Source: an uncultured Phycisphaerales bacterium (lineage in GTDB: Bacteria; Planctomycetota; Phycisphaerae; Tepidisphaerales; Tepidisphaeraceae). Taken from it: a stretch of 64,000 nt of DNA. The notes beneath the pieces are model-generated. The model worked only from the letters and a program-made list of their open reading frames with translations. It was not told the DNA's origin and searched no databases. The stretch is taken from positions 992,001 through 1,056,000 of the forward strand of contig CAVWVQ010000003.1 of the NCBI GenBank assembly GCA_963758525.1. Direction: 5' to 3'. Each line of letters opens with the position of its first letter. Position 1 is the first letter of the stretch. Shown in pieces: positions 14,701 to 58,821 of the stretch. The position numbers were made by a program, and so were the translations under genes.

Positions 14701-17700
14701 CGTCCTCGGTCAGCTCGGGAAGCCCCTCCTCAGCCTCGGCGTTGAATACGCTGATCATGAACGCGGTGCCGGGAGACATCACACAAGGTCCTTCTTTTAA
14801 CCTGGCAAACAACGTCCTTGATTACGATTTGAACTACAGCGCAAACGTTTCCACTTCTGTTCCGTTCAACCTGGGCCTTAGCATCTTAAATGTCAATGCG
14901 AACGTGACTGCGTCGGCCGCGGTGAACGTAAAACTCGAATTTGGCTTCGACGCGGCCGACGGGTTCTACATTGTCGGCGGCTCTGATACGGCTCATCCGC
15001 AGTTGTCGGTGACGGGCACGCTGGCGCTGAACGTCGCCCAGGCGGGTCTGGTGCTCGGGCCGCTTCAGGCCGGCGTTGCCAATGGCACGGGCAACATTTC
15101 ATTGGGGTTTGCCGTCAATCTCGTTCCTCCCAGCAGCGGAAACGGAAGCAAGATTTCCGCGACGCAACTGTTGTCCGGCGCCGGGTCCATCCTGAGTCCA
15201 ACGGTGAGCGGCAGCGGAGCGCTGAACCTGCCCCTTGGCGTGCGTCTGGGCTCCGGGGGGCCCGGGGTGCTGGCAACCTTCAGCGCCAGTTGGGATCCCA
15301 ATCGTGATAATCCGCTGGAGTTCGGCCCGAACAACTCCACCGATCCGACCGACGGGTTTGGAAACGTGACATTTGATTTGGGAGAAGTTGTCGACGAGAT
15401 CGTTGGGCCGGTGCTGAACTTCATCAAGGAGTATAATCCCATTCCGCAGAGCGTGCTCGACGCGCTCAACACGCCGCTCCCATTTCCCCTGGAAGGCATG
15501 ACTGCCGGGGATGTTCTCGGCGACTACATCGACAACCCGGGCGTTAAGCTTCTGCTTCAGATAGAACAAGCCATCGGCCTGGTGGAGCAGGTGGCCAGTC
15601 TCGCTTATACGCCGATCGACCTCAGCTCGTATTTGCCGGGATCGGGCTCGAGCCAGGCCGCGGCGCAGCACAACAGCGCGGCTGCCCAATCCTCTTCCCA
15701 AACCCCCGATGATGCATCTGGTGACCCCGAGAATGGGGCCGTGCAGAACATTATCGACGAACTTAAAAACGATTTCTATCTCGACATTCCTCTGCTGGAC
15801 CATCCGACGTCCACAATCATTGCCTTGTTCACGGGCCAAAACGTCAACCTCGTTGATTTCGATCCTGGTCACGTGGAGATCAGCGAGACGTATTCAACGC
15901 CCAAGGTCTCAGTCCCGCTCTTCAGCGTTGGATTCGCCAGTGCCGAGGCGTTCGCACAGATCTCGTTCACCGCGTCGCTTTTCGCCAACATCGACATCGG
16001 CCTGGACACGCGCGGACTGCTGGGCCACTACATCTCCAGCGGCGTCTATTCCACAAGTCAGCCATCCAACGTTCTGATGGGCTTCTACATCAGTGACGCT
16101 GACACCGGCTCAGCCAACGACGGGAATTATCAGGCCGGGATCAAACTCGCGGCGGATATCATATTCGGTGGCGAGATCAGCATCCTCGGCTATGACGCGG
16201 TTGATCTCTATGGCGGCGTGGGTCCCTATGGAATCGTCGGCATTCACTTTAACGACATTTATTACAACAGCGCCGGCCAGCCTGGGGGAGTCGCTAATTA
16301 CAAGGGCAATCCGGCCGGCGACGGGAAAGTCTATTTCGACGAACTCGACTGGATTGCCGACAACTATGGTCCATTGTGCGCCGTCATGCCGGGGGGCGAA
16401 CTGGGCTTGAGCGTCACCCTCGGTGGCGATGTGAATCTGCTTCTCTGGTCGATCAGCTTCACCATTTACCAGCACGACTTCACGCTTGCGACGTTCGACT
16501 TCCCTTGCATGCTGAACCTCACCGACCTGGGCAGCATTCAAGGCCATTCGTTCGTCATGAACAATAACACTGCCACCGACGGGCGCAAAATTGAGGTCAA
16601 CATTGCCGATGACCCGAACAACAACAACGTGCCGGCGCTTCATATCAACGAAACCAACGGTAACGTCTATGAAACTGACTATATAGACCTCTCGACCCTG
16701 CAGGCCGCGGGCGTGGACACGTTAGTCTTGAAGGGCTCCGACGGCGACGACAACTTCAAGATCGATCCCGACATCACCACGACGGGACCCTTCCGACATC
16801 TGCAGGTGCTCACCGGCAAGGGAAACGATCAGGTCGACCTCTCGAATTTCCAGAACGGCACGAACGGAACAACCAACAACTCCAACCTCACCGACGTGAT
16901 CATCACGGGCGGAACCGGCGGAACGTCAGACAACGACACCATCACCGGCAATTACGCGCCCGACACGATATTTGCCGGCGACGGAGCAAATCTGATCATT
17001 CCCGGCACCGGCAACGACGAGGTCGTCGAAAGCAGCGGGGATGACACGATCAACGCCGGCGGCGGCAACGATACTGTGGTGGGCGGCACCGGCGCGAACG
17101 TGTTGATCAACACCGGCAATGGCGCCAATACGATCACCGCCGGCTCGGGCACCAACGCAATCAACGCCGGCGACGGCAACAACGTCATCCACGCCGGCGC
17201 TGGCGACGACCGAATTCAAGTGGGCCAGGGGAACAATCTCATCACTGCCGGCGCGGGACGGGAATCGATCACCGCGGGCAACGGCAACGATACGATTTAT
17301 GCGGACGCCGGCACCAGCTACATCACTGCCGGCAACGGCTCCAACGTGATTACCGCCGGCGCCGGAGCCGACCAGATCCATGTCGGGCAGGGCAACAACA
17401 CTATCAAAGCCGGCGCCGGCTCCGAATCCGTCACCGCGGGCAATGGCAACAACACGATTACCGCAGATGTCGGCGCCAGCAACATCCTGGCCGGCAATGG
17501 GAACAACGTCATTACCGCCGGCGCTGGAGCCGACCAGATTCAGGTCGGTCAGGGGAACAACCTGATCAACGCGGGGACCGGCACTGATACCGTCATCAGC
17601 GGCAACGGCAACAACGTGATTTACGGAGACACGGGCGGGAGCGACATCTTTGCCGGGACCGGCAATAACTTCATCTATGAAGACGGCGGCGCTAACGTAA

Positions 17701-20700
17701 TTTATGGTCATCCAATTGGCGTCCCCAGCGGGAATGACTACATCCAGATAGGGCCAGGCAGCACCACTCTGCACGGGGGCGAGGGCGACAACCTCCTCGT
17801 CGAAACTTCCGATTCCAGCCAGACGCTCACGGACACCACTCTCACCACCGGCCAGACCACCCTCACCTACGACGGCATCGATCGAATCATCATCAATGGC
17901 GGCCCCGAAAACGATTCATTCGATGTCAGCGGGTATTCCGCCGGAAACGTGACGATCAACGGAGGGGGCGGTTCTGACACGATAGCCTCCACCGACGACA
18001 CGAATTTCACGCTCACCAACACCACCCTCACTCGCGCCACCGGCGCGAATTTCTCGCTCAACGGCATCACCAATGCCGTGCTCAACAGCGAAACCACGGA
18101 CAACACGTTTGACGTGACCCATTTCACTGGAAATGCGACGCTCACCGGCGGCGGCGGTGTGGATACGGTCGTCTCCTCCATCCCGGCGAATTACACGCTC
18201 ACCGACTCGTCCCTCACGAGTTCCGCCGGCGGAAAATTTTCGCTGGCCGGCATTTCCCACGCCGTGCTGACCGGCGGATCTGGAAGCGATCAGATCAATA
18301 CCAGTGGTTTCTCCGGGAACGTCACGCTTCTGGGCGCTGCCGGAACTGACACGATCACCAGGGGAACCGGCGATACCAACATCGCCGGGACGACCGCCCC
18401 CAATCCACCGGCCACGCTCCTGACCGGATTTGCCGACGGTGGTCCGTGGAATGAGATGGGCGATTCCGCCTCCGGTCTGGGCGTCAGCGAAAGCACCAGC
18501 GCGGCGATCGAGCCATCGTCGGTCTATGCAGCCGCCGGTCCGTACGTTGCCTGGGCTGACAATCGGAGCGGTGTTTATCAGATTTATGTCGCACAGTACG
18601 TGAGCGGCGCCTGGGTCGAACTTGCCGGCAGCGCCCATGGCGGGGGCATCAGCAATTCGGCGTTCGGAGCCCGTCGACCGAGTATTACCCTCAATTCGTC
18701 GGGCGAACCGATCGTCGCCTGGACGCAGCAGAAGAGTGGATCGAGCGTCGGCTCGATCGACGTCGCTCAATTCAACCCTTCCGGCGCTGGCGCGTGGGTC
18801 GCGTTGCCCACGCCATCCGGAACCTCGGCCGACCAGGCCCACGTTGTCCAAACCAGCGCCGGTCCCGTGGTCGCCTGGCAGGATTCAAGCGGCGCAACCA
18901 CGAATATCTATGTCGCGCGGTATAGCGGTTCGGCGTGGGCCGCGCTGCGCCGGCGCCACCAGCGGAAGCGGCGTTTCAGCCTCCTCATCCAATGTCGCTG
19001 GAATTGCTCTTGCCACAGATGGAACCAATGTGGCGCTGGCGTGGACGCAGACTGTCAGCGGGGTTCAGCAAATTTATGCCAAGCAGTATTCCGGCACGAC
19101 CTGGAGCGCCCTGGGCGGATCGGCCTCGGGGAATGGAATCAGCAACACGACGGCGAGCAGCCAAAGCCCGACCCTGGCCTACAGCGGGGGAAGCCTTTAT
19201 GTCGCCTGGCAAGCCTCCAACGCCGGCGCGTCGGTGATCTATGCCGACAAGTACAACGGCACAAATTGGGTAGCTGCCGGAACGGGTGCAAACAGCGGTG
19301 CGGGGCTGTCGAATAGCGGCGGCGGTTCGACGCAGCCGGTTTTGGCCGCGGGAGGCAGCAATCTCTATCTGCTCTGGACCGACAACCGAATTACCAGCGG
19401 CGCCGGAAATACCACTGCTGTATACGCCCTGCAGTGGAATGGGACGCAGTTCGTCGAACAACTGCCGGGGGAGGCAACCGGATTGGGCATCAGCCCAACC
19501 GCCAGTGCACCGGTAACTCCGTCGCTGTCCGTCAGCCCTGCCGGCAATCCATTCGTCGCGTGGGGCGACACGATGAAAGGTTCACCGCAGATCGCCGCCC
19601 GCTTGAATACCGCCGCGGTCGGCACCGTTTACTATGTCAACGATGCCAGTCAGATCGGCGACGCCACCGCAACTGCCGCCGGCAGTTCTGCGAACAACGG
19701 AAAGACGCCCGCCGCGCCCGCCCTTTCGATCGCTCAGATACTCTCTGCCTATACGCTCAAATCCGGCGATGTGATTGTCGTTGACGCCGGCAATTACGCC
19801 GCGCCCGTGACCATCAACATGGCGGGCGTCACCGTCATCGCAGCCCGGGGCGCCACGGCCAATTTCCAGGGGCTCTTCTCGGTCACTTCGGCAAACAACG
19901 TTGTTTTGCAGGGTCTGATCTTTTCCGGCGGCTTGAGTGTTTCTGCCAGCTCGAATGTCTCAATCATCGGCAACCGTTTCTATGGCGGCGGATTCACCCT
20001 CACCGGCGGAAGCGGTTCGCACATTGCCGGCAACCTCATGCAGGTTCTATCCGGGGAGTCGGGCAGCGGCCTGACGCTCGCGGGAGGCGCCGATTCCACC
20101 GACATCGAATTCAACACGATCACCGGCGGCGCCAACGGCATTTCCGTGGCGGCCGCAACGAATTTGCTTATCCGCGGGAACACCATTTCAGGCGTTTCCA
20201 CCGGAATCTCGCTGGCATCCGCAACCGGCGGTACCATCTCCGGAAACGACATCTCTTCGGCCGGCACCGCTCTCAACATCGCCGCCGCGTTCACCGGATC
20301 GATCGACAGCAACGAAATCCATGACAGCGCGGTCGGTGTCAACTATGCCGCCTCGGCGCCGCTCAACGGCAATCGGATTCGCAATAATGCCACCGGGATC
20401 AACTCCACCGTTGCAGGAACCGTTGCTGGCCTGGGCTTCGTCGCCAGCACCGGCCTGGACGCCGCTTTGGCTCTGACGCCCAATCAGATCTTCGGCAATG
20501 TCACTGGCGTAGCGCTAATCGGGCAAATGCAAAATCAGCACGTGTTCGCCAATACCACGGGCGTTTCGGGATCGGGCATCCTCGGGGTGCTGACCTTGAA
20601 TACCGCCAACGTCATCGAAGCCAACACGACCGGCGTTATCTTCAACGGGCCGGTCCAGTTCAATCGTATCGACCGGAACGGTACCGGGATCGTCGCACAG

Positions 20701-35700: not shown

Positions 35701-38700
35701 ACACTTGCCGCGGTGAGTCCCGGCGCGGGTACGCCAACGGGCACAGTCACGTTCCAGACTGGAAGCACCGTTCTCGGAACCGCTTCGCTCAGCAACGGCG
35801 TCGCAACCTTGACGACCACGACGATTTCCCCGGGCAGCAACTCCATCAAGGCGGTCTACGGCGGAGATGCCAACTTCACGACGAGCACGTCCAATTCCCT
35901 CAGCCAGACAGTTACGCAGGCGGCGAGCAGCGCCACGGCGGGCGGAACCTCCGGCGTTTTCGGCCAAACCCTGACGTTGACGGCAACACTCGCCGCCGTC
36001 AGCCCCGGCACTGGGTCGCCGACGGGCACGGTCACCTTCAAGGACGGATCGACGGTCCTTGGAACCGGCACGCTCGGCGGCGGCGTCGCAACACTGGCCG
36101 TCAGTTCACTCGGTGTTGGAAGCCATTCGATCACCGCTGTCTACGGCGGCGACGCTGACTTTACCGCCAGCACGTCCCCCGCGTTTGCTCAGTCGGTCAG
36201 CCAGGCAGCGACGACCGCCACGCTGACCAAGAATACAACCGCCGCCATCAAGTTCGGACAGAGCGTGACGTTTACGGCAAAGCTCGCCGCCGTCAGCCCC
36301 GGCGCCGGAACGCCGACCGGCACGATCACGTTCATGGACGGATCGACCACGATCGGAACCGGCACGCTCAGCAACGGCGTTGCCACCCTGACAAGCACCA
36401 CGCTCCCGGCGGGGAGCAACTCGATCAAGGCCGTCTACGGCGGCGACACCAACTTCATCGCCAGCACATCCAACGCGCTGAGCCAGACGGTCACTCAGAC
36501 GCTGGCGGCGGCAACCACCACACTGAGCGAAAGCACCGGCGCGATCAAGTTCGGTCAGAGCGTCATCTTTACTGCAACGCTGGCCCCCGTGAGTCCCGCG
36601 ACAGGGACGCCCACGGGCACTGTCACGTTCAAGGATGGCGCGGTCGTGTTGGGAAGCGGAACACTCAGCGGCGGAATCGCAACATTCACCACCAGCTCGC
36701 TGAGCGTGGGCAGCCATTCCATTACCGCCGTCTACGGCGGCGATCCCAGCTTCGCCTCGAGCACTTCCAGTGCGCTTGCGGAGACTGTCGCCCAGTCGGC
36801 GTCGACTGCCGTATTGACCAAGAGCACGACAACCGCCATCAAGTTCGGACAGCCGGTGACGCTGACGGCGACACTTGCGGCCGTGAGCCCCGGCGGCGGC
36901 ACGCCGACCGGCGCGGTCACCTTCCAGGATGGATCGACCGTTCTCGGAACCGGGACGCTCAGCAGCGGCATCGCAACCTTGACAACCGCGACGATTCCCA
37001 CGGGCAGCAACTCGATCAAGGCGGTCTACGGCGGAGATACCAACTTCACCGCCAGCACCTCCAATTCTCTCAGCCAGACCGTGACGCAGGCGGCAAGCAC
37101 TGTGACGGTGAGCGGCGTGCCCGGCGTGTTCGGGCAGAACGTGACGCTGACGGCAACGCTCACTGCCGTGAGCCCCAGCACCGGCACCCCGACCGGCGTC
37201 GTCACCTTCAAAGACGCAAGCACCGTGCTTGGAACCGGAACACTCAGCGGCGGCGTTGCGACGTTTGCCTCCAACGCGCTGAGCATCGGCAGCCATTCGA
37301 TCACCGCCGTCTACGCCGGCGACACCAACTTCACCGCCAGCACGTCGGGCGCCTTCAACCAGGCGATCTCGCAGGCGGGGACGACCACCGCGTTGACCAA
37401 GAGTGCGACTGCGTCCCTTAGGTTCGGCCAGAGCGTGACGTTCACGGCGACGATCGCCGTGGTGACCCCCGGCGCCGGAACGCCTACCGGCGTCGTCACT
37501 TTCATGGACGGCGCGACCGCACTCGGAACCGGTACGCTCAGCAACGGGATTGCCACCCTCACGACCGCGACGCTCCCGACCGGCAGCAATTCCATCACGG
37601 CCGTCTACGGCGGCGACAGCAACTTCCTCGTAAGCATGTCCAATGCCCTTGCCCAGACCGTCACCCAGGCGGCAACGACCACCACGCTGACCAAAAACAC
37701 CACCGCGGCCGTCAAGTTCGGCACGAGCGTGACGTTCACCGCGACGCTCGCCGCCGTGAGTCCCGGCTCCGGCATGCCGACGGGCATCGTTACTTTCGAG
37801 GATGGAACCACCGTTCTCGGCACCGGGACGCTCAGCAACGGCGTGGTGACCTTCACGAGCACCCAACTCCCAACCGGCAGCAACTCGATCAAGGCCGCCT
37901 ATGGCGGCGACACGAATTTCACCGCCAGCACCTCCAGCGCTTTGAGCCAGACGGTGACGAAATCGGGGTCGACCACGACGCTCAGTGGCGTGCCGGGTGT
38001 CTTCGGTCAAAGTGTGACGCTTACTGCGATGGTGACGGCAGTGTCTCCCGGCACCGGCACGGCCAGCGGCACTGTTACATTCGAGGATGGGACGACCGTG
38101 CTCGGCAGCGGCACTCTCAGCGGCGGCATCGCCACCTTCGCAGTCAGTTCGCTGAGTCTTGGCACTCATTCGATCACCGCGGTCTATGGCGGGGACGCCA
38201 ACTTTACCGCCAGCACCTCAAGTCCTTTCTCCCAGATCATCCAGTCGGCATCGACCACCACGCTGACCAAGAGCACTACTGGCGTGGTCAGGTACGGTCA
38301 GAGCGTCACCTTCACGGCGACACTTGCCGCAGTGAGTCCCGGCGTCGGGACGCCAACGGGCGCGGTCACCTTCAAGGACGGCACGATTGTTCTTGGCGCC
38401 GGCACGCTCAGCGGCGGCATCGCTGCCTTGACGACCACCACCATTCCCGCAGGGAGCAATTCGATCACGGCTGTCTACGGCGGCGACACGACCTTTGCCG
38501 CCAGCACGTCCAATGCACTGAGCCAGACCGTCACGCAGGCGGCAACGACGACGACGTTGACCAAGAACGTCAACGTCGCCATCAAGTTTGGACAGCCGGT
38601 GACGCTGACGGCGACACTTGCGGCCGTGAGCCCCGGCGGCGGCACGCCGACCGGCGCGGTCACCTTCGAGGATGGATCGACCGTTCTCGGAACCGGGACG

Positions 38701-48890: not shown

Positions 48891-49679
48891 ATGACCACCA
48901 GTCTCTACCGCTATCGAGGATTCATCTGGCATCGCGCGATCACCGATATCCGCAATCGCTACGCGGGAACGGGAATCGGCATGTTCTGGAATCTCATCCA
49001 TCCGCTGGCGCTGATTGTGACGTATTCCCTTGTTTTCTCTACAATTATGGCGGCGCGCATCGACCACATGGAGGGCAAAAAGTTGCCTTACGTGGTGTAC
49101 CTGTGCTCGGGGCTGTTTCCGTGGCTGGCGCTGAATGAATCGATCATTGCGGGGTGCAATGCGTTTGTGGCCAATGCCAACTACCTGCGCAAGCTGCCGG
49201 TGCCGGAGCAGGTGTTTGTTGCGTCGGCGGCAATGTCTTCCACGCTGACGCTGTTGATGAATTTCGCGCTGCTGCTGCTGATCGCGGTGCCGCTGAACTT
49301 CATGCCGACATGGTATTGGCTGCTGCTTCCGCTGCCGTTGATCGCGTTGCAGGCATTGGGCTTCGGCATCGGTTTGTTGCTTGGAACGCTGAATGTTTTC
49401 TTCCGCGATATCGCGCAGTGGACGACGGTCACGCTGCAAATTGCGATGTGGACGGTGCCGATCGTGTACGCGGCGAAGATACTTCCGCCGTGGGTGCTGA
49501 GGGGTTTGGCGTGGCATCCGGTCATGCCGGCCATCGAAACTGTCCGGCATCTGCTGATGGATTCGACTTTGCCCCCTGCTCACGATTGGATCGGGATGTT
49601 TGCGTGGCCGGTGGCGATCGGGATCATCGCCGATCTGGTTCTGCGCAAGCTGCGGGCGGAAATCCGGGACTTGGTATGA
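48891..49679 (+). CDS. wzm: ABC-2 polysaccharide export permease
   Basis: DIRNRYAGT..G..W..IHPL, LNVFFRDI, W.VPIVY; six TM helices. Confidence 0.9.
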   Translation: MTTSLYRYRGFIWHRAITDIRNRYAGTGIGMFWNLIHPLALIVTYSLVFSTIMAARIDHMEGKKLPYVVYLCSGLFPWLALNESIIAGCNAFVANANYLRKLPVPEQVFVASAAMSSTLTLLMNFALLLLIAVPLNFMPTWYWLLLPLPLIALQALGFGIGLLLGTLNVFFRDIAQWTTVTLQIAMWTVPIVYAAKILPPWVLRGLAWHPVMPAIETVRHLLMDSTLPPAHDWIGMFAWPVAIGIIADLVLRKLRAEIRDLV

Positions 49680-51132
49680 GCGAGCCGGCGGCGTCGCGAG
49701 AATCTGTGGGCTCTGCTTCCTCCTCCGCTGGTAGTCCGGGGAAGGATCGAGGTGGCGGCCAGACTTGGGCGGCGCCGAGGACAAACTCGGCCCCCACCCC
49801 AGCCCTGCCCCGGAGTATCAGGGGAGGGAGCAAAGACGGCGAGCCACTGGTTCGGGCCTGGAGTCTGGGGAAGCGATACAAGCTGTACGATAATCCGTAC
49901 GCACGATTGGTCGAATGGGCCTCCTTCGGCTCGGCGGTGCGCCATCGCGATTTCTGGGCGCTGCGTGATGTCGCCCTGGAATTGGACCGCGGCGAATGCC
50001 TGGGGATCGTGGGGCGAAATGGGGCCGGCAAGAGCACGCTGCTGCGCCTGCTCAGCGGAACGCTGCGGCCAACCACCGGCGACTTTGACATCACCGGACA
50101 GGTCTTCTCCCTGCTGGAGCTCGGCACGGGGTTCAACGCGGAATTGACCGGCCGCGCAAACGTTCAGCAGACCGCGCAGCTCCTGGGACTTCCGCCGGAT
50201 TACGCAACGGAGCACATGCACACCATTGAAGAATTCGCCGACCTGGGCGATTTCTTCGATCGCCCGGTGCGCATCTATTCATCGGGCATGTCGGTGCGGC
50301 TCGCGTTCTCGATGTTCGCGGCTTTCGAGCCCGAAGTGCTGATCGTCGATGAGGCGCTGGCGGTGGGCGATGCGTCGTTTCAACGGAAATGCTATCGGCG
50401 CATGGAAGAGATGATCGGCAGCGGCCGGCACGGTGTCATCCTTGCCGCGCACGATACCGGCGCCATCACCAAGTTCTGCACCAAGGCGATCTGGCTCGAT
50501 GGCGGACACATGCGCATGAGCGGCAAGCCGCAGGAAGTGGTGCAGGCGTATCTCAGGGAATTGCTTCTCAGCGGCGCACAGATCGCCCCGGCCCCGGCAA
50601 AGCCGATCGCAGCAGCGAGCGGCGCGTCGCAGCCGCTGCGGGCTCCCGCGAAGGTGCCGGGCGAGGGATTGCTGTCGCGCAGCCGCGCGGCGGTGCTCTA
50701 TCCCTCGAGCGGCGCCGAGCTGCTTGGCGTCTGGGTGGAGGACAGCGCCGGGCATGTTGTGCAGACGCTGCAGATCGACGAGTCTGCGAGCATTTGCTAT
50801 GCTCTTCGATTCACGAGCCCGCAGGAAAATCCCGTCTTCGGGACCCGGGTGACGAACATCCGCGGAGATCCGTTGGTGGTCACGAATACGCAGGTGCAAG
50901 GCGTGTCGGTCGGCCGTTACAACGCGGGGGACAGCGAAGTGGTGCGCTGGCCTTGCGCCCGGGGCTGGGCGTTGGAGACTACTTCATTTCCTGCGGTTGC
51001 TCGCTGCATGACGATCCGCAACAGTTTCTGCTGCGCGAAGTGGATGCGTATCAGTTCACGGTGACGGGAACGCCCCGATGTTGGGGCGTTTGCAACCTCC
51101 TGGATGCCCCTCAGTTGAGCAGCCAAGCATGA
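49676..51132 (+). CDS. wzt: Polysaccharide ABC transporter ATPase with C-terminal carbohydrate-binding domain (frameshift near 50955)
   Basis: FWALRDV, GRNGAGKSTLL, YSSGMSVRLAF, VDEALAVGDASFQRKC; C-terminal L..GDYFIS.G in ORF 50389. Confidence 0.92.
49791..49830. repeat. CCCTCTCCC-family REP within the 5' coding region of wzt
   Basis: CCCCCACCCCAGCCCTGCCCCGGAGTATCAGGGGAGGGAG resembles the reverse complement of 11457-11496. Confidence 0.6.
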
Positions 51133-54100
51133 TTTCAGAACAGGGTGACGGTCTGGTTTTTCTGTTGGGCGTGCCGCGCTCCGGCACCACGCTGCTGGCG
51201 ACGATGCTCGCGCAGCACCCGCAAATTGTCAGTCCCCCCGAGCCCTGGCTGATGCTGGCGCTGGAGGCGATGGGGCAAACCCCGTTCGATCACCCTGCCG
51301 ACCCGCAACTGGTCGGCGAGGCGATGCTGAAGTTCGCCAACGACGACGCGAAAGTCGTTGCGTCCCGCGCCTATGCGCTGAGCGTCTACAACCGCATTCT
51401 CGCCGACGCCGGCCGCAGCGTGCTGGTCGACAAAACACCGCGCTACTATCTGATTCTTCCGTTCCTCAAGCAACTGTTTCCCAACGCGAAATATCTCTGG
51501 CTGCATCGCAATCCTCTGGACGTCGCTGCCTCGTTCAAGACGACCTGGAACGTCGACCTGGCGGCGGACATGCGAGCGTCGGGCGCAAACCGCGGTTGCA
51601 TGGACCTGGTGCTGGGAACGCGGACACTGGCGGATTTTGCCGACGCGGCTGCGCCTCCGGTGCATCGCATTGCCTATGAGCATCTCGTCGCGGAACCGCA
51701 GCGCCTCGCTGCCGAGGCGATTGCATTTCTGGGGCTGGAGCCGGCGGAAAATCTCGGCCATTTTGAGTTGCGCGAGAGCGAGCTGGCAAAATCCGATTTC
51801 GGTGATCGAAAGATCATCCAGACGCACGAACCTCACGCGCAATCCGTCGGGAAATGGGAGAAGGATCTGCCGCGCGAGGATCTGCAGACGCTCGTGGACG
51901 CGGTCGGCGCCGAGTTGTTCCGCCGCCTCGGATATCAGGGCGTGCTGTCCCGTTTGGCTGAGCTTGGGGTTGCAGAGCCGTCGGCTGAAGCCACGGCGCT
52001 GGCGCAGCAGCCGATTCAAGCGCGTTACGCCGAGCGGCTCGCGTCGGTCCAGGCGGTCTGCACCCTTCGCGGCGCGGGCTTCGCCGGTCCGGCGCCGCGG
52101 GACATCGCTTCACTTTTTTCCAATCCATTTGTTTCCCTGCTGCTGGAGATGAATGGCTGGCGGCAGAAGATCGTCGATCTGCATCGCGAGATTGCCGCGC
52201 AGACCCAAAGGGCCGCTGCCGCCGAATCGCTCGCACAGGAAAAATCCGCCGAGATGGCGGCGACCGCGTCGCGCATGCACGGACTGGAGACGGGCCTCGC
52301 CGAGGCATACGAGACGGCCCGGAAACTGCGCGATGAACTGGATCACAGTACCAGCGCCGCGAAGAACGGGAGTCCTGGCGGCTTGCAAAGTTCCCCGCAG
52401 GCGTTCGCGCATGTCAACGCCCCGGATGTCGTGCGCGACGCGGGCGAAGATCGCGCCTACCGCCCGAGTTGGTCGGGAGCGAGTGGAATGCTCAACGACG
52501 AACACGCCGGCATTTATGATGCCACCAAGGACCTCCCCGGCTGGCAGGATCCTGCCGACAGCCAGAAGCTCTATGAGATGGCTTATCACAGCGGGGCCAT
52601 CATCCTGGAAATCGGTGTCTATGGCGGACGCAGCGCCGTTGTCGAGTTGCGCGCCGCCCTTGCCGCGCTGGAAAAAAAAGAGGGAAGCAAGCCGCAGTTT
52701 TATGGCGTCGATCTGGATCCGATGGCTATTCCGCGCAGCCTCAAATCGCTGAAAGACGCGGGCATCGATCAATATTGCCTGCTGTTTCACGGCACGCTGA
52801 AGGATTTTCACCGCGATGTTCCCATCACCCCCACGATGGTCTTCGTCGACGGAGATCACAGCTACGAAGGGGTGCTGGCCGATCTGGCGCTCCTGGCGAC
52901 ATTCGTCGCGCCGGGAACGCCGATCATGTGTCACGACTACTCCGGCATCCCCGGCGTCAAGCGCGGAGTCGACGAGGCAATCGCCACCGGCCGCTTTGAG
53001 GTGATGGGTCTGTTTGCCGGCTCGATTTTGCTGCGCGCATCGTCGCTGTGCGCCGGAATTCCGCGCGGACTGGGGCAGCGGACCTTCGAGCAGATTCGCG
53101 ACGCGCTCCTGGAGGTCTACCTATCGCCCGAGGTGAAGCCGGAATCCCCCGTCAACCATGCCGCCAACCGGCAGATCACTCTGGCGGCACGTCAGGAACT
53201 GCGGATCGGAACCGACGTCGCCGGCAGCAGCGGGCGCGGGCAGTGGCCCTACGTTCGCCCGCACGCGGACCCGTTGCCGGCAACGCTTCCCGACGGCCGC
53301 CCCTGGCCGAAGATTTCGATCGTTACGCCGACGCTCAATCAGGGGAAGTTTATCGAGCGGACGATCCTCTCGGTGCTGCACCAGAACTATCCGAACGTCG
53401 AATACATCATCATGGACGGCGGCTCAGTCGACCAAACGCTGAGCATCCTCGCGCGCTACGCGCAGCGGGTCCGCATCATCAGCGAAAAGGACACCGGGCA
53501 GAGCAACGCCATCAATAAGGGCCTGCGGCTCTGCACCGGCGATCTGTTCACCTGGCTCAACAGCGACGACATGCTCGCGCCCGAGGCGCTGTCCAGCCTG
53601 GCGATGGGTTTCTACGCGTCCGGCGCGGATATCGTCGCCGGCGTCTGCCAGGTTCAGAAAGATGGAAGCGTGGTCAATCGTCACATGACCACCTGCGGCG
53701 ATGGCCCCCTCTTGCTGGACGATCTGCTCGATCTCGACGGCACCTGGATGCAGGGCCAATTCTTCTATCAGCCGGAAGTGATGTTCACGCGGGCGATCTG
53801 GGAACGCGCCGGCGCCCACGTCGAGGAATCGCTGCATTACTCAATGGACTATGAGCTGTGGCTCAGATTCGCGGAGCAGGGCGCAAAAGTGCATCCGATC
53901 GGGCGGACGATTGCGCTGTTTGGAGTACACGCCGAACAGAAGACGTTTCGCGTGGAGGATTTTCTTCCCGAGCTGCGAAAGGTGCGCGACGCGTTCATCG
54001 CCCGCACGAGCCGCCGCGCACCGTCCGCGCGTCCCGCGCCCGCGAAAAAGCAACTGCGCATCGTCTTCTTCAATGACTTGGGCTGGGTTGTTGGCGCGGG

Positions 54101-55562
54101 AATCGCGCACCATCGTCTGGCGGTGGCACTGGCATCCACCGGGTGCGAGATTGTCCCCATCGCCATCTCGCCCGACGTGACGCCGGCGCGGCTCTCCAGC
54201 GAGAAGATCATTGAGGCTATCACGCAGCATGCGCCCGATCTGGTCGTCATCGGAAACATTCACGGCGCCAGCCTCTCCCCCACCGTGATCGGCCAGATCA
54301 GCTCCCGATGGGCGACGGTGCAGATCATTCATGATTTGTGGATGCTCACCGGGCACTGCGCCTACAACGGTGATTGCGACAAATATCTGCTGGGCTGCGA
54401 TGAGAGCTGTCCGACGCCGCATGAATATCCCGTGCTGGCGCCTCCGAAAATCCGCCCCGCGTGGGAGGCCAAGGGACAGGTCATCCTCAGCGACCATGCG
54501 CCGATCCTCGCGGGACTCAGCGGATGGACCGTGGAATTCATCAAGACAAGATTTCCGCATCTGGCGTCAGCCAATCCTCCCAAGCTGATCAACGCCCGGT
54601 GCGGCTTGCCGCCGGAATTCTTCAATGCTCCGGACAAGCGCACCGCCCGGCAATGGCTCGCGCTGCCGGAGGATAAGTTCATCATCCTCTTCTCCGCATC
54701 GAACCTCAGCGACAAACGAAAGGGGCTCGGCCGGCTCCTCGAGGCGCTGCAACTGCTTCAACTCCCCGACGTGCTGGCGGTTTGCATCGGGCACATGGAC
54801 GCGGCCGCAACAGCCGAGGGGGTGGCGGTGCGATCGATGGGATATGTCTCCGACGCATCGGAACTGGCGATGTGCTACGCCGCCGCCGATCTGTTCGTCG
54901 GTCCCAGTCACATGGAAACATTCGGACAAACCTTCATCGAAGCCGCCGCATGCGGAACCCCTTCGGTTGCCTTTGCCGTCGGCGGCGTGCCCGATGCGCT
55001 TCTTTCCGGCGCGAGCGGACGACTGGTTCATTCCGTTACCGCGCGGGCCCTGGCCGACGCGATTGAAGAACTGCATCAGAACCCGACGCTTCGCCAGAAC
55101 ATGGGCGCATGGGGCCGGCTGTGGGCCGCCAATGAATGGTCGCTCCGCTCCGCGGCGCAGCGATTTCTCTCGCAGCTCAATGCCATCGGCCTGCTCGCGC
55201 AACTTGGCGCAGCGCCCAGGACCGCTTTCCCCACCGAGCCCGCGAGCGTTCCCGCTCCAACGTATCTCGACATGCAAAACCCCGCCCGCGCCGCCGCCCC
55301 GTCCAACGGCGGCCCCATGGTGCAGGCGCGCATCGCCCGCCTCGAAGCCGAGCGAGACCAGTTGCAGGCCCGCGTCCGGCAGATCACCAACACCCGCCTG
55401 TGGCGAACCGTCTCGACCGTCTATCCCGTCTACTACCGCACGATCCACGCCTCCTATTTCCCCGGCTGGCTGCGCGGAATGGTGCAGCGCCGCGTAAGGG
55501 GGATGGCCGCCGGGCCCCCGGCGAAGGCGCCGCCTAACGGAGATGCCGGGAAGTCGCATTGA
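51129..55562 (+). CDS. Multidomain glycan biosynthesis protein: sulfotransferase - coiled coil - SAM methyltransferase - GT2 - GT4 - short coiled coil/amphipathic tail
   Basis: GVPRSGTTLL and DKTPRY, RNPLDV..S (PAPS motifs); LEIGVYGGRS, FVDGDHSYE, CHDY; ISIVTPTLNQ, WLNSDD; HDLW.LTGHC, KRKG, ETFGQTFIEAAACGTP. Confidence 0.9.
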   Translation: MISEQGDGLVFLLGVPRSGTTLLATMLAQHPQIVSPPEPWLMLALEAMGQTPFDHPADPQLVGEAMLKFANDDAKVVASRAYALSVYNRILADAGRSVLVDKTPRYYLILPFLKQLFPNAKYLWLHRNPLDVAASFKTTWNVDLAADMRASGANRGCMDLVLGTRTLADFADAAAPPVHRIAYEHLVAEPQRLAAEAIAFLGLEPAENLGHFELRESELAKSDFGDRKIIQTHEPHAQSVGKWEKDLPREDLQTLVDAVGAELFRRLGYQGVLSRLAELGVAEPSAEATALAQQPIQARYAERLASVQAVCTLRGAGFAGPAPRDIASLFSNPFVSLLLEMNGWRQKIVDLHREIAAQTQRAAAAESLAQEKSAEMAATASRMHGLETGLAEAYETARKLRDELDHSTSAAKNGSPGGLQSSPQAFAHVNAPDVVRDAGEDRAYRPSWSGASGMLNDEHAGIYDATKDLPGWQDPADSQKLYEMAYHSGAIILEIGVYGGRSAVVELRAALAALEKKEGSKPQFYGVDLDPMAIPRSLKSLKDAGIDQYCLLFHGTLKDFHRDVPITPTMVFVDGDHSYEGVLADLALLATFVAPGTPIMCHDYSGIPGVKRGVDEAIATGRFEVMGLFAGSILLRASSLCAGIPRGLGQRTFEQIRDALLEVYLSPEVKPESPVNHAANRQITLAARQELRIGTDVAGSSGRGQWPYVRPHADPLPATLPDGRPWPKISIVTPTLNQGKFIERTILSVLHQNYPNVEYIIMDGGSVDQTLSILARYAQRVRIISEKDTGQSNAINKGLRLCTGDLFTWLNSDDMLAPEALSSLAMGFYASGADIVAGVCQVQKDGSVVNRHMTTCGDGPLLLDDLLDLDGTWMQGQFFYQPEVMFTRAIWERAGAHVEESLHYSMDYELWLRFAEQGAKVHPIGRTIALFGVHAEQKTFRVEDFLPELRKVRDAFIARTSRRAPSARPAPAKKQLRIVFFNDLGWVVGAGIAHHRLAVALASTGCEIVPIAISPDVTPARLSSEKIIEAITQHAPDLVVIGNIHGASLSPTVIGQISSRWATVQIIHDLWMLTGHCAYNGDCDKYLLGCDESCPTPHEYPVLAPPKIRPAWEAKGQVILSDHAPILAGLSGWTVEFIKTRFPHLASANPPKLINARCGLPPEFFNAPDKRTARQWLALPEDKFIILFSASNLSDKRKGLGRLLEALQLLQLPDVLAVCIGHMDAAATAEGVAVRSMGYVSDASELAMCYAAADLFVGPSHMETFGQTFIEAAACGTPSVAFAVGGVPDALLSGASGRLVHSVTARALADAIEELHQNPTLRQNMGAWGRLWAANEWSLRSAAQRFLSQLNAIGLLAQLGAAPRTAFPTEPASVPAPTYLDMQNPARAAAPSNGGPMVQARIARLEAERDQLQARVRQITNTRLWRTVSTVYPVYYRTIHASYFPGWLRGMVQRRVRGMAAGPPAKAPPNGDAGKSH

Positions 55563-55944: not shown

Positions 55945-56628
55945 TTAGTCCCTCGGCGTGATCACATTCAATTGAATCGCATGGCGAAAGCGGAATCCAA
56001 CCTTTTCGTACAGAAACTTCGCGGCGTTTTCGGATTTCACGTGCAGAAATGGAGTCTTGCCATCGGCAAGAGCCTGCGAGGCGAGTGAGAGCAGGAGCGA
56101 GCGGGCATGGCCGAGGCCTCGGAAGCTGGGATCGGTGCAGACGGCGCTGATCTCGGTAAAGGCGTCGAGCCGGAGGCGCTGGCCTGCCATTGCGATCAGG
56201 CGTCCTTCGTCTGAGCGGATGCCGAGATACTGGCCCATGCGAATGGTGTTGGGCAGGAACGGACCGGGCTCGGTCGCGGCGGTCAGCGCAAGCATTTCCG
56301 GTACGTCGGATTCCTTCAGGTGCAGAAGCGTTGCGGGCGACGAGCCGTTGGGCCGCTCGCAGACCATCTGATCGATCAGCCGGCTGCGAACAATCTGCCA
56401 TGTCTCTGGGATGTCGATTGGACCGGCCGTAAAAAGTCCGACGTTTTCTCCGATCGGCACGAGGCCGCGCAAATCTGAAAACGCGGCGGGCGTGGCTTCG
56501 CGCACCGCGGCCAGCGGAGATACATCGCTGGGATATCGGCGGGCGAGGCCGGACGAACGCGCGATCGACGCATGCGCGCTGGTCAACGCAAACCAGATCG
56601 GATTGTCGAGCATTCTGAAATCGGTCAT
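55945..56628 (-). CDS. GNAT N-acetyltransferase (FR47-like)
   Basis: LDNPIW.AL, TEPGPF, MAGQR, EISAVCT.P.FRGLG, FLHV..EN.A..LYEK.GF. Confidence 0.88.
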   Translation of the reverse strand: MTDFRMLDNPIWFALTSAHASIARSSGLARRYPSDVSPLAAVREATPAAFSDLRGLVPIGENVGLFTAGPIDIPETWQIVRSRLIDQMVCERPNGSSPATLLHLKESDVPEMLALTAATEPGPFLPNTIRMGQYLGIRSDEGRLIAMAGQRLRLDAFTEISAVCTDPSFRGLGHARSLLLSLASQALADGKTPFLHVKSENAAKFLYEKVGFRFRHAIQLNVITPRD

Positions 56629-56639
56629 CGGCCGGTCAC

Positions 56640-57392
56640 TCACCGAAATCCGCCGGTGACAAACAAGGTTTCGCCCGTGACCCATTTTGAATCATCGGTC
56701 GCGAAGTAGACGACAGCCGGCGCGATGTCGTCGGGATGACCGACGCGCCCGAGCTTCGCGCCTGCGACGTACCCTTTCGTGAAGGCACTGTCCGGATCAC
56801 CGGCGCCGGCGTTGCCTTCGGTGACCACCATGCCGGGGTTCACGGAATTGACGCGAATCTTTTTGGGTCCGAGTTCGGCGGCAAGCGTTCGCGTAATCGA
56901 ATCGACCGCGGCTTTGGTCGCCGAGTAGACGCTTGCGCCGGGAAGCGCGGCGGTTGATACAACGGAGCTGATGTTTACCACGCTTCCGCCGGCCGGGCCG
57001 AAATGTTTGACGGCTTCCTGGGTCGCCATGAGCAGCCCGAGAACGTTGAGATCGAAGTGCTCATGAAAATGCGCGGGCGTCACCTGGTCGAGCGGCGCGA
57101 ACTTATAGATGCCGGCGTTGTTCACCAGCACGTCGAGACGGGAATACGCCTTTTTCGTCTCGGCGAACAATCGCGTCACGTCGGCCTGCTTCGACATGTC
57201 TCCCTGCACCGCGATGGCTTTGCCCCCCTTCCCGGTGATCTCGGAGACAACCTTGTCAGCCCCGGCCTTGCTCGACGCATAATTGACGACGACCGCCGCG
57301 CCCTCCGCGGCAAGCTGCCGGGCGATCTCCGCTCCAAGGCCCTTCGACGCTCCGGTAACCACCGCGACTTTTCCAGATAGTTTTGCAGACAT
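56640..57392 (-). CDS. Short-chain dehydrogenase/reductase
   Basis: TGASKGLG, NNAG, YSATK, IRVNSVNPG. Confidence 0.92.
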   Translation of the reverse strand: MSAKLSGKVAVVTGASKGLGAEIARQLAAEGAAVVVNYASSKAGADKVVSEITGKGGKAIAVQGDMSKQADVTRLFAETKKAYSRLDVLVNNAGIYKFAPLDQVTPAHFHEHFDLNVLGLLMATQEAVKHFGPAGGSVVNISSVVSTAALPGASVYSATKAAVDSITRTLAAELGPKKIRVNSVNPGMVVTEGNAGAGDPDSAFTKGYVAGAKLGRVGHPDDIAPAVVYFATDDSKWVTGETLFVTGGFR

Positions 57393-57551
57393 GCCAGCTC
57401 CTGTTTCCCTGTGTGTTTCGTGTGACCCGTCAGTGTAGGCCGGCTTGTTTCCCGGATCGATGACAGGCTTCTTTAATCTGCACATCCTCCGCCTGCCGCG
57501 GTGCAAATGTCGATTCGTCGATTCTCAGATTCGCTTTCAGTTTCCCAGTTC

Positions 57552-57944
57552 TTATTTGCTTCTCGGGGTTCGAGTGCGCGGCCTGCGCGTCGCTGGAGCA
57601 CCATCGCGTGAGTTGCCTTGCAACTGCAGGTGATGCGCCTTGACGATGGCAGCGACCAATCCGGGAAATCGCTTCTCGAGCTCGGCGCATCGGGATGTGT
57701 TGTGCATCTCGACGCCCCGGCGCTCGCCACGAATCAGGCCGGCTTCGCGGAGCGCCTTGAAATGCTGCGACAGCGTTGATTTGGGAATCGCTTTCTCGCT
57801 GATGCTCAGGAAGTCGGAGCAATTGATGGGGCATTGCGAGCCGACGATTCTGGCGTAGATCGCCACCCGCACCGGGTCGGACAGTGCATGAAGGATCCCC
57901 TCGACCGTGATGTCTTCAATCGATGGATGAAAAAGCGGCCGCAT
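57552..57944 (-). CDS. ArsR/SmtB-family transcriptional regulator
   Basis: LHALSDPVR..I, KSTLSQHFKALREAGLI, RFPGL. Confidence 0.9.
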   Translation of the reverse strand: MRPLFHPSIEDITVEGILHALSDPVRVAIYARIVGSQCPINCSDFLSISEKAIPKSTLSQHFKALREAGLIRGERRGVEMHNTSRCAELEKRFPGLVAAIVKAHHLQLQGNSRDGAPATRRPRTRTPRSK

Positions 57945-57966
57945 GAGCAATTTATTCTACTCTGGC

Positions 57967-58001
57967 TTGACTCTCAGTTCAATAGTTCTATTATTCGGAA
58001 C
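57967..58001 (+). promoter_or_regulatory. Putative promoter/operator between divergent arsR-like and SDR genes
   Basis: TTGACT-16-TATTAT overlapped by palindromes AATAG-TT-CTATT and GTTC-N9-GAAC. Confidence 0.5.
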
Positions 58002-58074
58002 AATGCGACTTCAGAAGAACAAACGCGTCGTTTTCCAGTTCTGAAGGACGCACGCACACTCGAAGGAGAAGCAG

Positions 58075-58821
58075 ATGAGCAAGCTCACGGGAAAAGTCGC
58101 GGTGGTCACTGGGGCATCCAAAGGGATCGGCGCCGGCATCGCCAGGGCGCTGGCAGCGGAAGGCGCGTCGGTCGTGGTCAACTACGCCTCGAGCAAATCG
58201 GGCGCGGAGACGGTCGTCGCCGCGATTACCAAGGCCGGCGGGAAGGCCGTGGCCGTCGGCGGCGACGTCTCGAAGAAGGCGGACGCCGAGGGAATTATCG
58301 CGGCCGCCATCAAAAACTACGGCCGTCTCGACATTCTCGTGAACAACTCGGGGGTCTACGAATTCGCGCCGATCGAGGCGGTCACGGAAGAGAATTTCCA
58401 CAGGATCTTCAATATCAACGTGCTCGGCGCGATCCTCGTCACCCAGGCAGCCGTCAAACATCTTGGCGAGGGATCGAGCATCATCAACATCGGCTCGGGC
58501 GTCAGCCGGCTCACTCCGGCGGGATCGACGGTGTATACCGGCACCAAGGGCGCGCTGGACGCCATCACCGGAGTGCTCGCCCGCGAACTGGGGCCGCGAA
58601 AAATCCGCGTGAACACCATCAACCCCGGAATGGTGGAGACCGAAGGCACGCAGACCGGCGGCTTCATCGGCTCTGATTTCGAGAAGGCCCTGATTTCCCA
58701 GGCGCCGCTCGGTCGCACGGGCAAGGTCAGCGACATTGCGCCCATTGCCGTCTTCCTCGCTTCGGACGATTCCGCGTGGCTCACCGGAGAACAACTCCTC
58801 GCCACCGGCGGCATCCGCTGA
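58075..58821 (+). CDS. Short-chain dehydrogenase/reductase (paralog of 56640-57392)
   Basis: TGASKGIG, NNSG, YTGTK, IRVNTINPG; AAGGAG RBS. Confidence 0.92.
   Translation: MSKLTGKVAVVTGASKGIGAGIARALAAEGASVVVNYASSKSGAETVVAAITKAGGKAVAVGGDVSKKADAEGIIAAAIKNYGRLDILVNNSGVYEFAPIEAVTEENFHRIFNINVLGAILVTQAAVKHLGEGSSIINIGSGVSRLTPAGSTVYTGTKGALDAITGVLARELGPRKIRVNTINPGMVETEGTQTGGFIGSDFEKALISQAPLGRTGKVSDIAPIAVFLASDDSAWLTGEQLLATGGIR

Follow-up and report, generated by a model that had tools for sequence, protein, structure and literature searches.

The open reading frame (ORF) at 51129..55562 (+) of the window, a stretch of 64,000 nucleotides from an uncultured Phycisphaerales bacterium, probably encodes a one-piece polymerase-terminator that caps an ABC-exported surface glycan with sulfate, the cap being read by the carbohydrate-binding domain (CBD) of the exporter ATPase Wzt. 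The ORF is free of stops and yields 1,477 amino acids (aa), as the initial annotation had stated. The order it proposed, sulfotransferase, coiled coil, methyltransferase, GT2, GT4 and membrane tail, is borne out by Pfam (Sulfotransfer_3 at 10-204, Methyltransf_24 at 493-604, GT2 at 730-854 and GT4 at 1170-1330) and is common to five full-length orthologues that are 71-76% identical. Since these orthologues are independent, an assembly artefact was rejected as the source of the fusion. Searches of 60 relatives and of 140 other genomes of the family and order yielded no full-length orthologue, and a scan of GTDB contigs with the single protein as query returned one weak locus. Elsewhere in the window, the ORF 38218-39726 (-) was rejected as a gene, being the shadow of a giant ORF (GC3 0.48 versus 0.84).

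The candidate terminator is the N-terminal, NoeE-like sulfotransferase domain (aa 9-311; 51153..52061, +), which was recognised by PF13469, NF052394, identity to NoeE and its PAPS-site motifs. Both of these motifs, which we take to form the PAPS site, are invariant across 22 relatives. The domain is 39% identical over 290 aa to NoeE of Sinorhizobium fredii NGR234, a Nod-factor fucose 3-O-sulfotransferase of the same family. It was not classed as NoeE, because the fusion scores 228 bits (whole protein) and 234 bits (domain) against NF052394, below the curated cut-off of 500 bits, and because a nod-gene neighbourhood is missing: the fusion lies beside wzm-wzt, NoeE beside nolO-noeI. According to PMC5080398, NoeE sulfates C3 of the fucose of Nod factors; by homology, the window domain may do the same to fucose or methylfucose. 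The C-terminal tail of NoeE matches the coil repeats of another fusion, P0067, in five places at 40-54%. NoeE nests inside a family of coiled-coil sulfotransferases, with one stalk repeat retained, and judging by sequence it appears to descend from that family. Its sister group consists of P0066 (WP_211407025.1), P0067 and P0140. A literature search, at record level except for PMC5080398, found no published account of the origin of NoeE.

A heptad-like helix had been reported behind the sulfotransferase. AlphaFold2, applied to residues 1-660, likewise predicts an unbroken helix of 69 residues and about 10 nm, the candidate ruler (aa 333-401; 52125..52331, +), with block pLDDT values of 50-89 overall and 79-89 at 351-390. 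In the best heptad register, 17 of the 23 a/d positions hold L, I, V, M or A. The coil is short, and its coiled-coil score, obtained by a home-made method, is modest at 0.66, 2 of 30 shuffles reaching 0.62; by the same method, the five orthologues score 0.70-0.80. The helix is followed by a poorly conserved, variable linker (aa 402-430; 52332..52418, +), predicted to be disordered (pLDDT <50 at 400-423). The short coil and amphipathic tail previously noticed at the C-terminus (55317..55508, +) are recovered by a low-confidence prediction (pLDDT 46-64) as a coil at 1397-1420 and two helices at 1423-1439 and 1446-1460, likely a membrane anchor. At 1423-1440 the hydrophobic moment reaches 0.62, compared with a 95th percentile of 0.42, the net charge there is +3, and the amphipathic helix is kept in all five orthologues.

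The Methyltransf_24 domain (52497..53048, +), situated between the coil and the glycosyltransferases, is likely a sugar O-methyltransferase on the polymerase side, its best fold match being the sugar O-methyltransferase MeT1. The GT2 module (53307..54008, +) may be a 6-deoxyhexose (fucosyl) transferase, as suggested by structural modelling. The Rhizobium tropici fucosyltransferase WrtF is its best and only GT-A fold match among those listed by Foldseek, with a TM of 0.68-0.73 on the target and 23-24% identity. The GT2 fucosyltransferases WrtF, WcaE, WbdO and GtfD are described as sharing Asp66, His142, Asn143, Asp167 and Phe191, with G/N-x-x-D replacing DxD (PMC12595478). Asp66 and a non-canonical DxD (NSDD, versus GADD in WrtF) align in the window module; the remaining positions were compared by eye, and two are apparently changed, His142/Asn143 appearing as Tyr/Gln. 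WrtF Ile69/Tyr70 are replaced by Gln/Ser, and the donor is putative. The GT4 module (54051..55178, +) carries four invariant cysteines, over which it weakly matches WcaC (E 4e-5), and is predicted to form a compact tandem with GT2 (pTM 0.84).

The exporter genes precede the fusion. The ABC-2 permease gene wzm (48891..49679, +; PF01061) shares an ATGA overlap with wzt (49676..51132, +), which encodes the ATPase (PF00005) and the C-terminal CBD (PF14524) seen by the initial annotation, the latter split over two frames near 50947-50950. The frame from 49676 ends at a stop at 51064. The reported ATGA coupling of the fusion to wzt is thus real at 51129-51132, although it involves the out-of-frame tail of wzt and not the frame from 49676. 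The first half of the CBD exceeds the PF14524 cut-off, and in relatives both halves lie in a single wzt frame. The frameshift is likely an assembly error, because frameshifts affect 12 of 62 conserved genes that were checked in the assembly, wzt among them, and several of the affected genes are 75-88% identical to relatives. A genuine break would mean that the locus is decaying, with a truncated CBD and a system that is inactive or blind to its cap in the source organism. The break does stand in the assembled sequence, and among the public-run contigs none spans it, nor does any public read set. This reading is nevertheless very improbable, given how common frameshifts are in the assembly, that the two CBD halves match those of intact relatives in conservation, and that the 4.4-kb fusion is intact.

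The wzt frameshift, the relationship to NoeE and the exchange of terminators on the same polymerase were overlooked by the initial annotation. The last of these emerged from a survey of related loci. A coil precedes the methyltransferase/GT part in 8 of 8 proteins joining a sulfotransferase to the GT2-GT4 chassis and in 20 of 21 other sulfotransferase fusions, as against 1 of 38 chassis proteins that lack a sulfotransferase, the exception being a GT9-like fusion. The GT2-GT4 pair was found at 14 loci in 400 genomes. All 12 loci that were fetched (G211 and G245 were not) have a coiled-coil partner, the head of which is GT9-like in ten, a sulfotransferase in one and a methyltransferase in one. 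In P0014 and P0015, a different type of sulfotransferase is fused to the same chassis. The far-end enzyme of a common GT2-GT4 polymerase is swapped, being a NoeE-like sulfotransferase, a second type of sulfotransferase, a GT9-like protein or a methyltransferase. Stand-alone relatives are arranged like WbdD, with an enzyme, a coil and an amphipathic tail. Of 80 metagenome loci, 43 were dropped for having less than 2.4 kb of upstream sequence; in the other 37, a CBD-bearing Wzt was found at 7 of 9 loci that have a coil, at none of the 22 that lack one and at none of the six of the NoeE clade. The coil is present in L034, where Wzt has no CBD, and in L033, where no wzt was found within the available stretch; that of L045 is roughly 200 aa long.

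The type of CBD tends to go with the sulfotransferase. Trees were built from 30 Wzt proteins. In the CBD tree, the domains of 14 of 17 sulfotransferase-coil loci form a clade (support 93/94, just below the starred threshold, 10 of the 14 rows being close kin). In the ATPase tree, ten of those 14 join six GT9-associated Wzt proteins (100/98), five of the six having been assigned by best match within the genome rather than by adjacency. AU tests, on groups picked after the first tree, show that the CBD and ATPase datasets reject each other's grouping (p 0.018; p 0.003). The final trees exclude L148 (mis-cut tail) and L074 (partial ATPase). The closest polymerase, at 66% and 54%, is that of L126, where the head is GT9-like and the CBD 13% identical, whereas loci with distant polymerases but the same sulfotransferase have CBDs that are 42-52% identical. 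The exceptions are L042 and L045, whose CBDs group with that of the methyltransferase-headed L022 (100/100), and L046, which groups weakly with GT9 loci. In most loci the CBD-coding sequence immediately precedes the sulfotransferase gene; transfer of the two together could therefore give the appearance of cap recognition, and this linkage confounds the association seen in 14 of 17 loci.

A candidate sulfate contact in the CBD would be Arg391 of Wzt (50846..50848, +), which aligns with Leu300 of the Aquifex domain, a position of the 3-O-methyl pocket. Arg or Lys occupies it in 13 of 14 clade CBDs and in 2 of 16 others, and the His361 position is Arg in 14 of 14 and 3 of 16, respectively. At the Trp362 position the window CBD has Glu, which would not readily be expected to contact an anion. 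Among PDB entries, the clade CBDs best match 2R5O (E 1.5e-12), presumably the Wzt domain of E. coli O9a.

From these features, a route can be proposed. The C-terminal amphipathic helices would dock the fusion on the inner membrane, where GT2 and GT4 would alternate to extend a lipid-linked disaccharide repeat, possibly containing L-fucose or another 6-deoxyhexose. The methyltransferase, by its fold match, likely O-methylates sugar hydroxyls near the polymerase. Once the chain spans helix and linker, the sulfotransferase would transfer sulfate from PAPS to the last sugar, probably at O3, and thereby block extension. Binding of this cap in the Arg-lined pocket of the CBD would then be followed by export through Wzm/Wzt and, most likely, by ligation of the glycan to lipid A-core. 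At its end, the glycan might look like Nod-factor 2-O-methyl-3-O-sulfo-fucose, where methyl and sulfate occupy separate hydroxyls.

The proposal of the initial annotation that sulfate is both terminal cap and export signal thus gains comparative support, while its addition that the sulfate is possibly then methylated does not. Relative to the stalk, the methyltransferase is on the same side as the polymerase, and across loci it is present or absent independently, with no relation to terminator type: in L045 a gene of its own encodes it, the 13 further loci of the shared CBD clade yielded no homologue, and it also occurs with GT9-like heads (four loci and P0021). That the chain is capped by a methyl group or a methylated sulfate, as the methyl-phosphate made by WbdD might suggest, is accordingly a doubtful reading. 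It would account for the retention of the methyltransferase in all six full-length proteins and in P0014 and P0015, for the many sulfotransferase fusions with some methyltransferase (FkbM or Methyltransf_23/11) and for the methyl-locus type of the L042 and L045 CBDs, and the flexible linker could bring the domains together. In every fusion examined, however, the methyltransferase is C-terminal to the coil or a separate gene, and in L128, where this sulfotransferase occurs with the same polymerase and a CBD that is 49% identical, no homologue of the window methyltransferase was found within 20 kb. Methylated sulfate in particular was rejected. The WbdD arrangement, in which the methyltransferase is distal to the coil together with the anion-adding enzyme, is not seen here.

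Somewhat less remote, but still unlikely, is that the sulfotransferase merely decorates the glycan, on internal repeats or at the tip after another stop, with the helix as a tether and with length and export set otherwise. NoeE itself acts on a side-chain fucose as a decorating enzyme rather than as a terminator, and related sulfotransferases without a coil occur in glycan clusters, two of them, in L074 and L140 (neither among the 37 metagenome loci), directly after wzt. In Aeromonas salmonicida, a 216-aa sulfotransferase-domain gene lies between wzt and wbbB, and the account in PMC4483657 reports no sulfate found in the O antigen. The three CBD exceptions among 17 loci point the same way. Against decoration, the sulfotransferase takes the place held in other loci by GT9-like and methyltransferase heads on this polymerase, the CBD clade and its pocket Arg tend to follow it, and an unsystematic scan of the ORFs near the locus revealed no second coiled-coil terminator. 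Sulfate capping is the preferred reading. The wider combination of an exporter-read bacterial sulfate cap made by a widespread family of NoeE-like sulfotransferases on coiled-coil rulers, Arg-pocket CBDs, freely swapping heads and NoeE as a ruler-less terminator that keeps one repeat is about evenly balanced between right and wrong.

The surroundings of the locus contain possible partners. Probable accessory genes at 58863..60952 (+), identified by Pfam and likeness to L031, encode a GT2, a polyprenyl-phosphate-sugar-synthase-like GT2 and DUF2304; about 3 kb of unrelated genes separate them from the fusion, and in L031 similar genes follow the sulfotransferase fusion (a comparison by eye). A divergent block at 39728..47703, possibly accessory, comprises by Pfam three methyltransferases, a split GT2, a membrane protein and a GT-C (PMT_2), and homologues of genes 44606, 40647 and 45709 flank the split system in L045. 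The source genome carries ATP sulfurylase, APS kinase, Gmd, LpxC and four Wzy_C/ligase-family genes, and in L064 cysC, cysD and a cysN-like gene adjoin wzm. KpsE has no match in the source genome, which leans against a capsule, although in a genome that is 91% complete this does not establish absence.

If the preferred reading is true, sulfate adds a new chemistry to the known chain caps, which the literature consulted names as methyl, methyl-phosphate and Kdo; a literature search found no published bacterial sulfate cap. The 2019 census by Mann, Kimber and Whitfield (Glycobiology 29:822), the abstract of which reportedly mentions predicted new chemistries, may already predict sulfotransferase terminators. 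The locus is suited to direct tests, as polymerase, ruler and terminator reside in one gene and one CBD residue is a predicted sulfate reader, with L126 (GT9-like head), L022 (methyltransferase head) and L128 (without the methyltransferase) as natural matched controls. It also suggests where NoeE, which helps to determine Nod-factor chemistry, may have come from, and indicates GT9-like proteins as a further undescribed class of terminator.

Compared with the fusion, NoeE has no ruler-length coil, anchor or GT, belongs to a nod-gene context and decorates a finished signal molecule. Sulfation of a non-reducing end is described as preventing further extension in the case of HNK-1ST acting on matriglycan (PMC9232514); this, however, is an animal enzyme that modifies glucuronic acid and is separate from the polymerase, and the part of that account considered here mentions no ruler or exporter check. 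The distal enzyme, proximal GTs, amphipathic helix and CBM-bearing Wzm/Wzt of capped ABC-dependent glycans of the WbbB/WbdD kind are all predicted for the window. In the known systems described in PMC11231755, the terminating activities are without exception distal to the coil, and the fusion matches the layout of WbbB and K. pneumoniae O7 ORF6 given there, with the terminator distal and the GTs proximal. WbbB of Klebsiella pneumoniae O12 and Raoultella terrigena is likewise a single polypeptide with an N-terminal terminator, a coil and two C-terminal GTs, served by a CBM-bearing Wzt (PMC11231755). The fusion differs from it in having a sulfotransferase instead of a beta-Kdo transferase as its head, an extra methyltransferase between coil and GTs, a GT2-GT4 pair and an anchor at the extreme C-terminus. 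Like the fusion as proposed here, O7 ORF6 and WbdD/WbdA of E. coli O9a add a small anionic non-sugar cap from the far end of the coil; in ORF6 and WbdD, kinase and methyltransferase are both distal and produce methyl-phosphate, whereas the fusion has its methyltransferase on the proximal side and would use sulfate as the cap.

The ORF at 51129–55562 (+) encodes a single polypeptide of 1,477 aa with sulfotransferase, Methyltransf_24, GT2 and GT4 domains. Structure prediction places a 69-residue helix (aa 333–401) and then a disordered linker between the sulfotransferase and Methyltransf_24, and a short coil with two amphipathic helices is predicted at the C-terminus. The domain order given in the initial annotation is thereby confirmed, the domains having been found and the helix and tail predicted. 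The fusion is real, since five proteins of 1,478–1,487 aa share its layout at 71–76% identity. The names of homologues suggest that it comes from a Phycisphaerae planctomycete. Four cysteines of its GT4 domain (aa 1077–1094), in a stretch that weakly matches WcaC, are invariant in 35 aligned proteins and possibly form a metal or iron–sulfur site. The related proteins P0007–P0013 carry two or three tandem Methyltransf_24 copies ahead of GT2–GT4.

The wzm and wzt genes lie upstream of the fusion. Their proposed association with the fusion stands, with one correction: the carbohydrate-binding domain (CBD) of Wzt is broken by a frameshift near 50947–50950. Since this domain is in one frame in relatives and 12 of 62 conserved genes in the window's assembly are frameshifted, the break is treated as a probable assembly error; decay of the locus, to which such a break could also point, is considered very improbable. 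A GT2 gene (41395–42703, −) is also divided between two frames, probably by another assembly indel. The glycan cluster is interrupted after the fusion: a GNAT gene, two short-chain dehydrogenase genes and an HTH regulator (55945–58821) precede the downstream GT2 genes. The same genome encodes a second CBD-bearing Wzt, followed by TylF-like and other methyltransferases and glycosyltransferases (L030; G000:C3:1753800–1762700), the CBD of which is 16% identical to that of the window. An RTX-repeat ORF (2,520 aa; 11754–19316, +) overlaps, in another frame, a 7,028-aa ORF (18622–39708, +) that encodes β-helix, malectin, laminin-G and numerous Ig-like domains; 3.2-kb internal repeats of 96–98% identity lie in this region. 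The two ORFs probably make up a single giant surface protein of ~9,000 aa that the assembly has interrupted, a possible carrier of glycans.

Of 400 other genomes from the class, 14 encode the GT2–GT4 pair, and each of the 12 loci examined among these has a coiled-coil partner for it. Its head is GT9-like in ten, a NoeE-like sulfotransferase in one (L128) and a methyltransferase with a long coil in one (L022). Of the ten GT9-like heads, that of L126 is fused and six are proteins in their own right, each with coil and amphipathic tail; in two more loci the coil is encoded by an ORF of its own after the GT9-like one, and the tenth is broken up by frameshifts. A wzm gene is nearby in seven of the ten loci, and wzt adjoins only in L126. 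Homologous proteins join the same methyltransferase/glycosyltransferase chassis to a coil with a Sulfotransfer_1-type (P0014, P0015) or GT9-like domain (P0021). Among the 67 best homologue matches of the fusion, a coil precedes the methyltransferase/glycosyltransferase part in 8/8 sulfotransferase–chassis proteins, 20/21 other sulfotransferase fusions and 1/38 proteins lacking a sulfotransferase. The NoeE-like sulfotransferase and coil also head other cargo (GT2–methyltransferase, GT4, FkbM), or stand alone with a coil and amphipathic tail, the layout of WbdD. The swapping of heads on one chassis, together with the use of the sulfotransferase–coil on other cargo, therefore places the sulfotransferase in the terminator slot, and we infer that it terminates the chain.

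The heptosyltransferase-like GT9 domains on a coil with amphipathic tail, fused to or beside GT2–GT4 (L126:7383–11153(−), P0021, L023, L024, L025, L127, L129–L133), are a candidate undescribed class of sugar-adding terminators. The separate ORFs encoding a coil and membrane tail behind the GT9-like gene (L129:8600–9600, L130:3300–4250) are possible stand-alone ruler subunits. Coils in the sulfotransferase family range from ~40 to ~400 residues (L045, L064, P0049, P0178), a naturally occurring set of lengths on which the ruler could be tested.

Of 80 metagenome loci with related sulfotransferases, the count covered the 37 with 2.4 kb or more of upstream sequence. A CBD-bearing Wzt was found in 7/9 loci with a coil, 0/22 without and 0/6 of the NoeE clade, using profiles that included these loci's own Wzt, with the seven positives confirmed by Pfam. 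Counter-examples are L034 (Wzt lacking a CBD) and L033 (no wzt seen) among the coil loci and, outside the 37-locus table, L074 and L140, where wzt adjoins a coil-less sulfotransferase. Trees of 30 Wzt place the window and nine closely related sulfotransferase loci differently by domain: their ATPase parts fall with six GT9-associated Wzt (100/98), five of them assigned by best match, and their CBDs with those of four sulfotransferase loci that are distant (93/94). In AU tests on groups chosen after a first tree, both alignments reject the grouping of the other (p 0.018 in one test, 0.003 in the second). Ten of the 14 members of this CBD clade are close kin, and L042, L045 and L046 are exceptions to the CBD–sulfotransferase association. 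The CBD-coding end is physically linked to the sulfotransferase gene, and linkage alone could give the same tree pattern. A sulfotransferase that only decorates the glycan would accord with the coil-less neighbours of wzt; given the terminator slot, it is judged unlikely.

A profile of 13 CBD-clade domains matched PDB 2R5O best (E 1.5e-12), then Aquifex Wzt (6e-6) and 5HNO (1e-3); 2R5O and 5HNO are presumably the O9a and O12 Wzt domains. Pocket positions were read from a printed alignment that is noisy outside the clade; chain numbering and published numbering differ there by one. According to the available text on Aquifex Wzt (PMC9445017), Leu300, Thr346, Ala348 and Trp362 form the pocket for the cap's 3-O-methyl group, with Asn313 binding the ring oxygen. 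In the alignment, the Leu300 position is Arg/Lys in 13/14 clade members vs 2/16 other Wzt and His361 is Arg in 14/14 vs 3/16; within the clade, Ala348 is Gly in 14/14 and Asn313 is kept in 13/14. Such a basic, roomier pocket would fit a 3-O-sulfate, for which Glu at the Trp362 position in most members is a less simple fit.

The suggestion that the sulfate is possibly then methylated found no support. The methyltransferase sits between the helix and the polymerase modules, and its closest fold is MeT1 of Mycobacterium hassiacum, which we take to be a sugar O-methyltransferase. In the split system L045 a homologue is encoded by a gene of its own, and four GT9 loci have one too; none was found in L128, L126, L022, five further GT9 loci or the rest of the CBD-clade loci. 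Being proximal and coming and going independently of the head, the domain more likely acts on sugar hydroxyls than on sulfate. A methyl or methyl-sulfate cap, to which the fused domain might point, is thus quite improbable.

The sulfotransferase domain is 39% identical to NoeE of NGR234, which, in the available text of PMC5080398, transfers sulfate onto C3 of 2-O-methylfucose in Nod factors. It scores 228–234 bits against a NoeE cut-off of 500, so it was classed as NoeE-like rather than NoeE. Trees built from 90 and from 33 domains put the NoeE clade inside the coil-bearing family, with P0066 (coil–GT4), P0067 (coil–FkbM) and P0140 (coil–tail) as its sister (100/99); placement with the coil-less outgroup was rejected (AU p 1.5e-7, LG+G4). 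The tail of NoeE aligns with the coil repeats of P0067, a protein that itself exceeds the NoeE cut-off. In the simplest reading of these sequences, NoeE would be a truncated terminator. A fucose-containing repeat is plausible because, among the matches listed for the GT2–GT4 model, the fucosyltransferase WrtF is the sole GT-A fold and the genome encodes Gmd; fucosyltransferase signature residues are only partly kept in GT2.

The fusion is thus probably a polymerase–terminator that caps an exported glycan with sulfate read by the Wzt CBD, a reading supported by the head in the terminator slot, the CBD trees and the pocket arginine. GT2–GT4 would extend the chain, the sulfotransferase would add a terminal 3-O-sulfate to the last sugar, and the predicted coil would set the length, the predicted C-terminal tail holding the protein at the membrane. 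The 10-nm helix, linker and methyltransferase perhaps imply short chains, roughly estimated at 10–20 disaccharide repeats. The CBD would recognise the cap, and the exported chain may be ligated to LPS: the genome has PAPS-making, LpxC and ligase-family genes, and KpsE was not found in it. Literature searches found no bacterial sulfate cap, and a 2019 terminator census outside their reach may have predicted one. In animals, according to the available text of PMC9232514, HNK-1ST caps matriglycan by sulfation.
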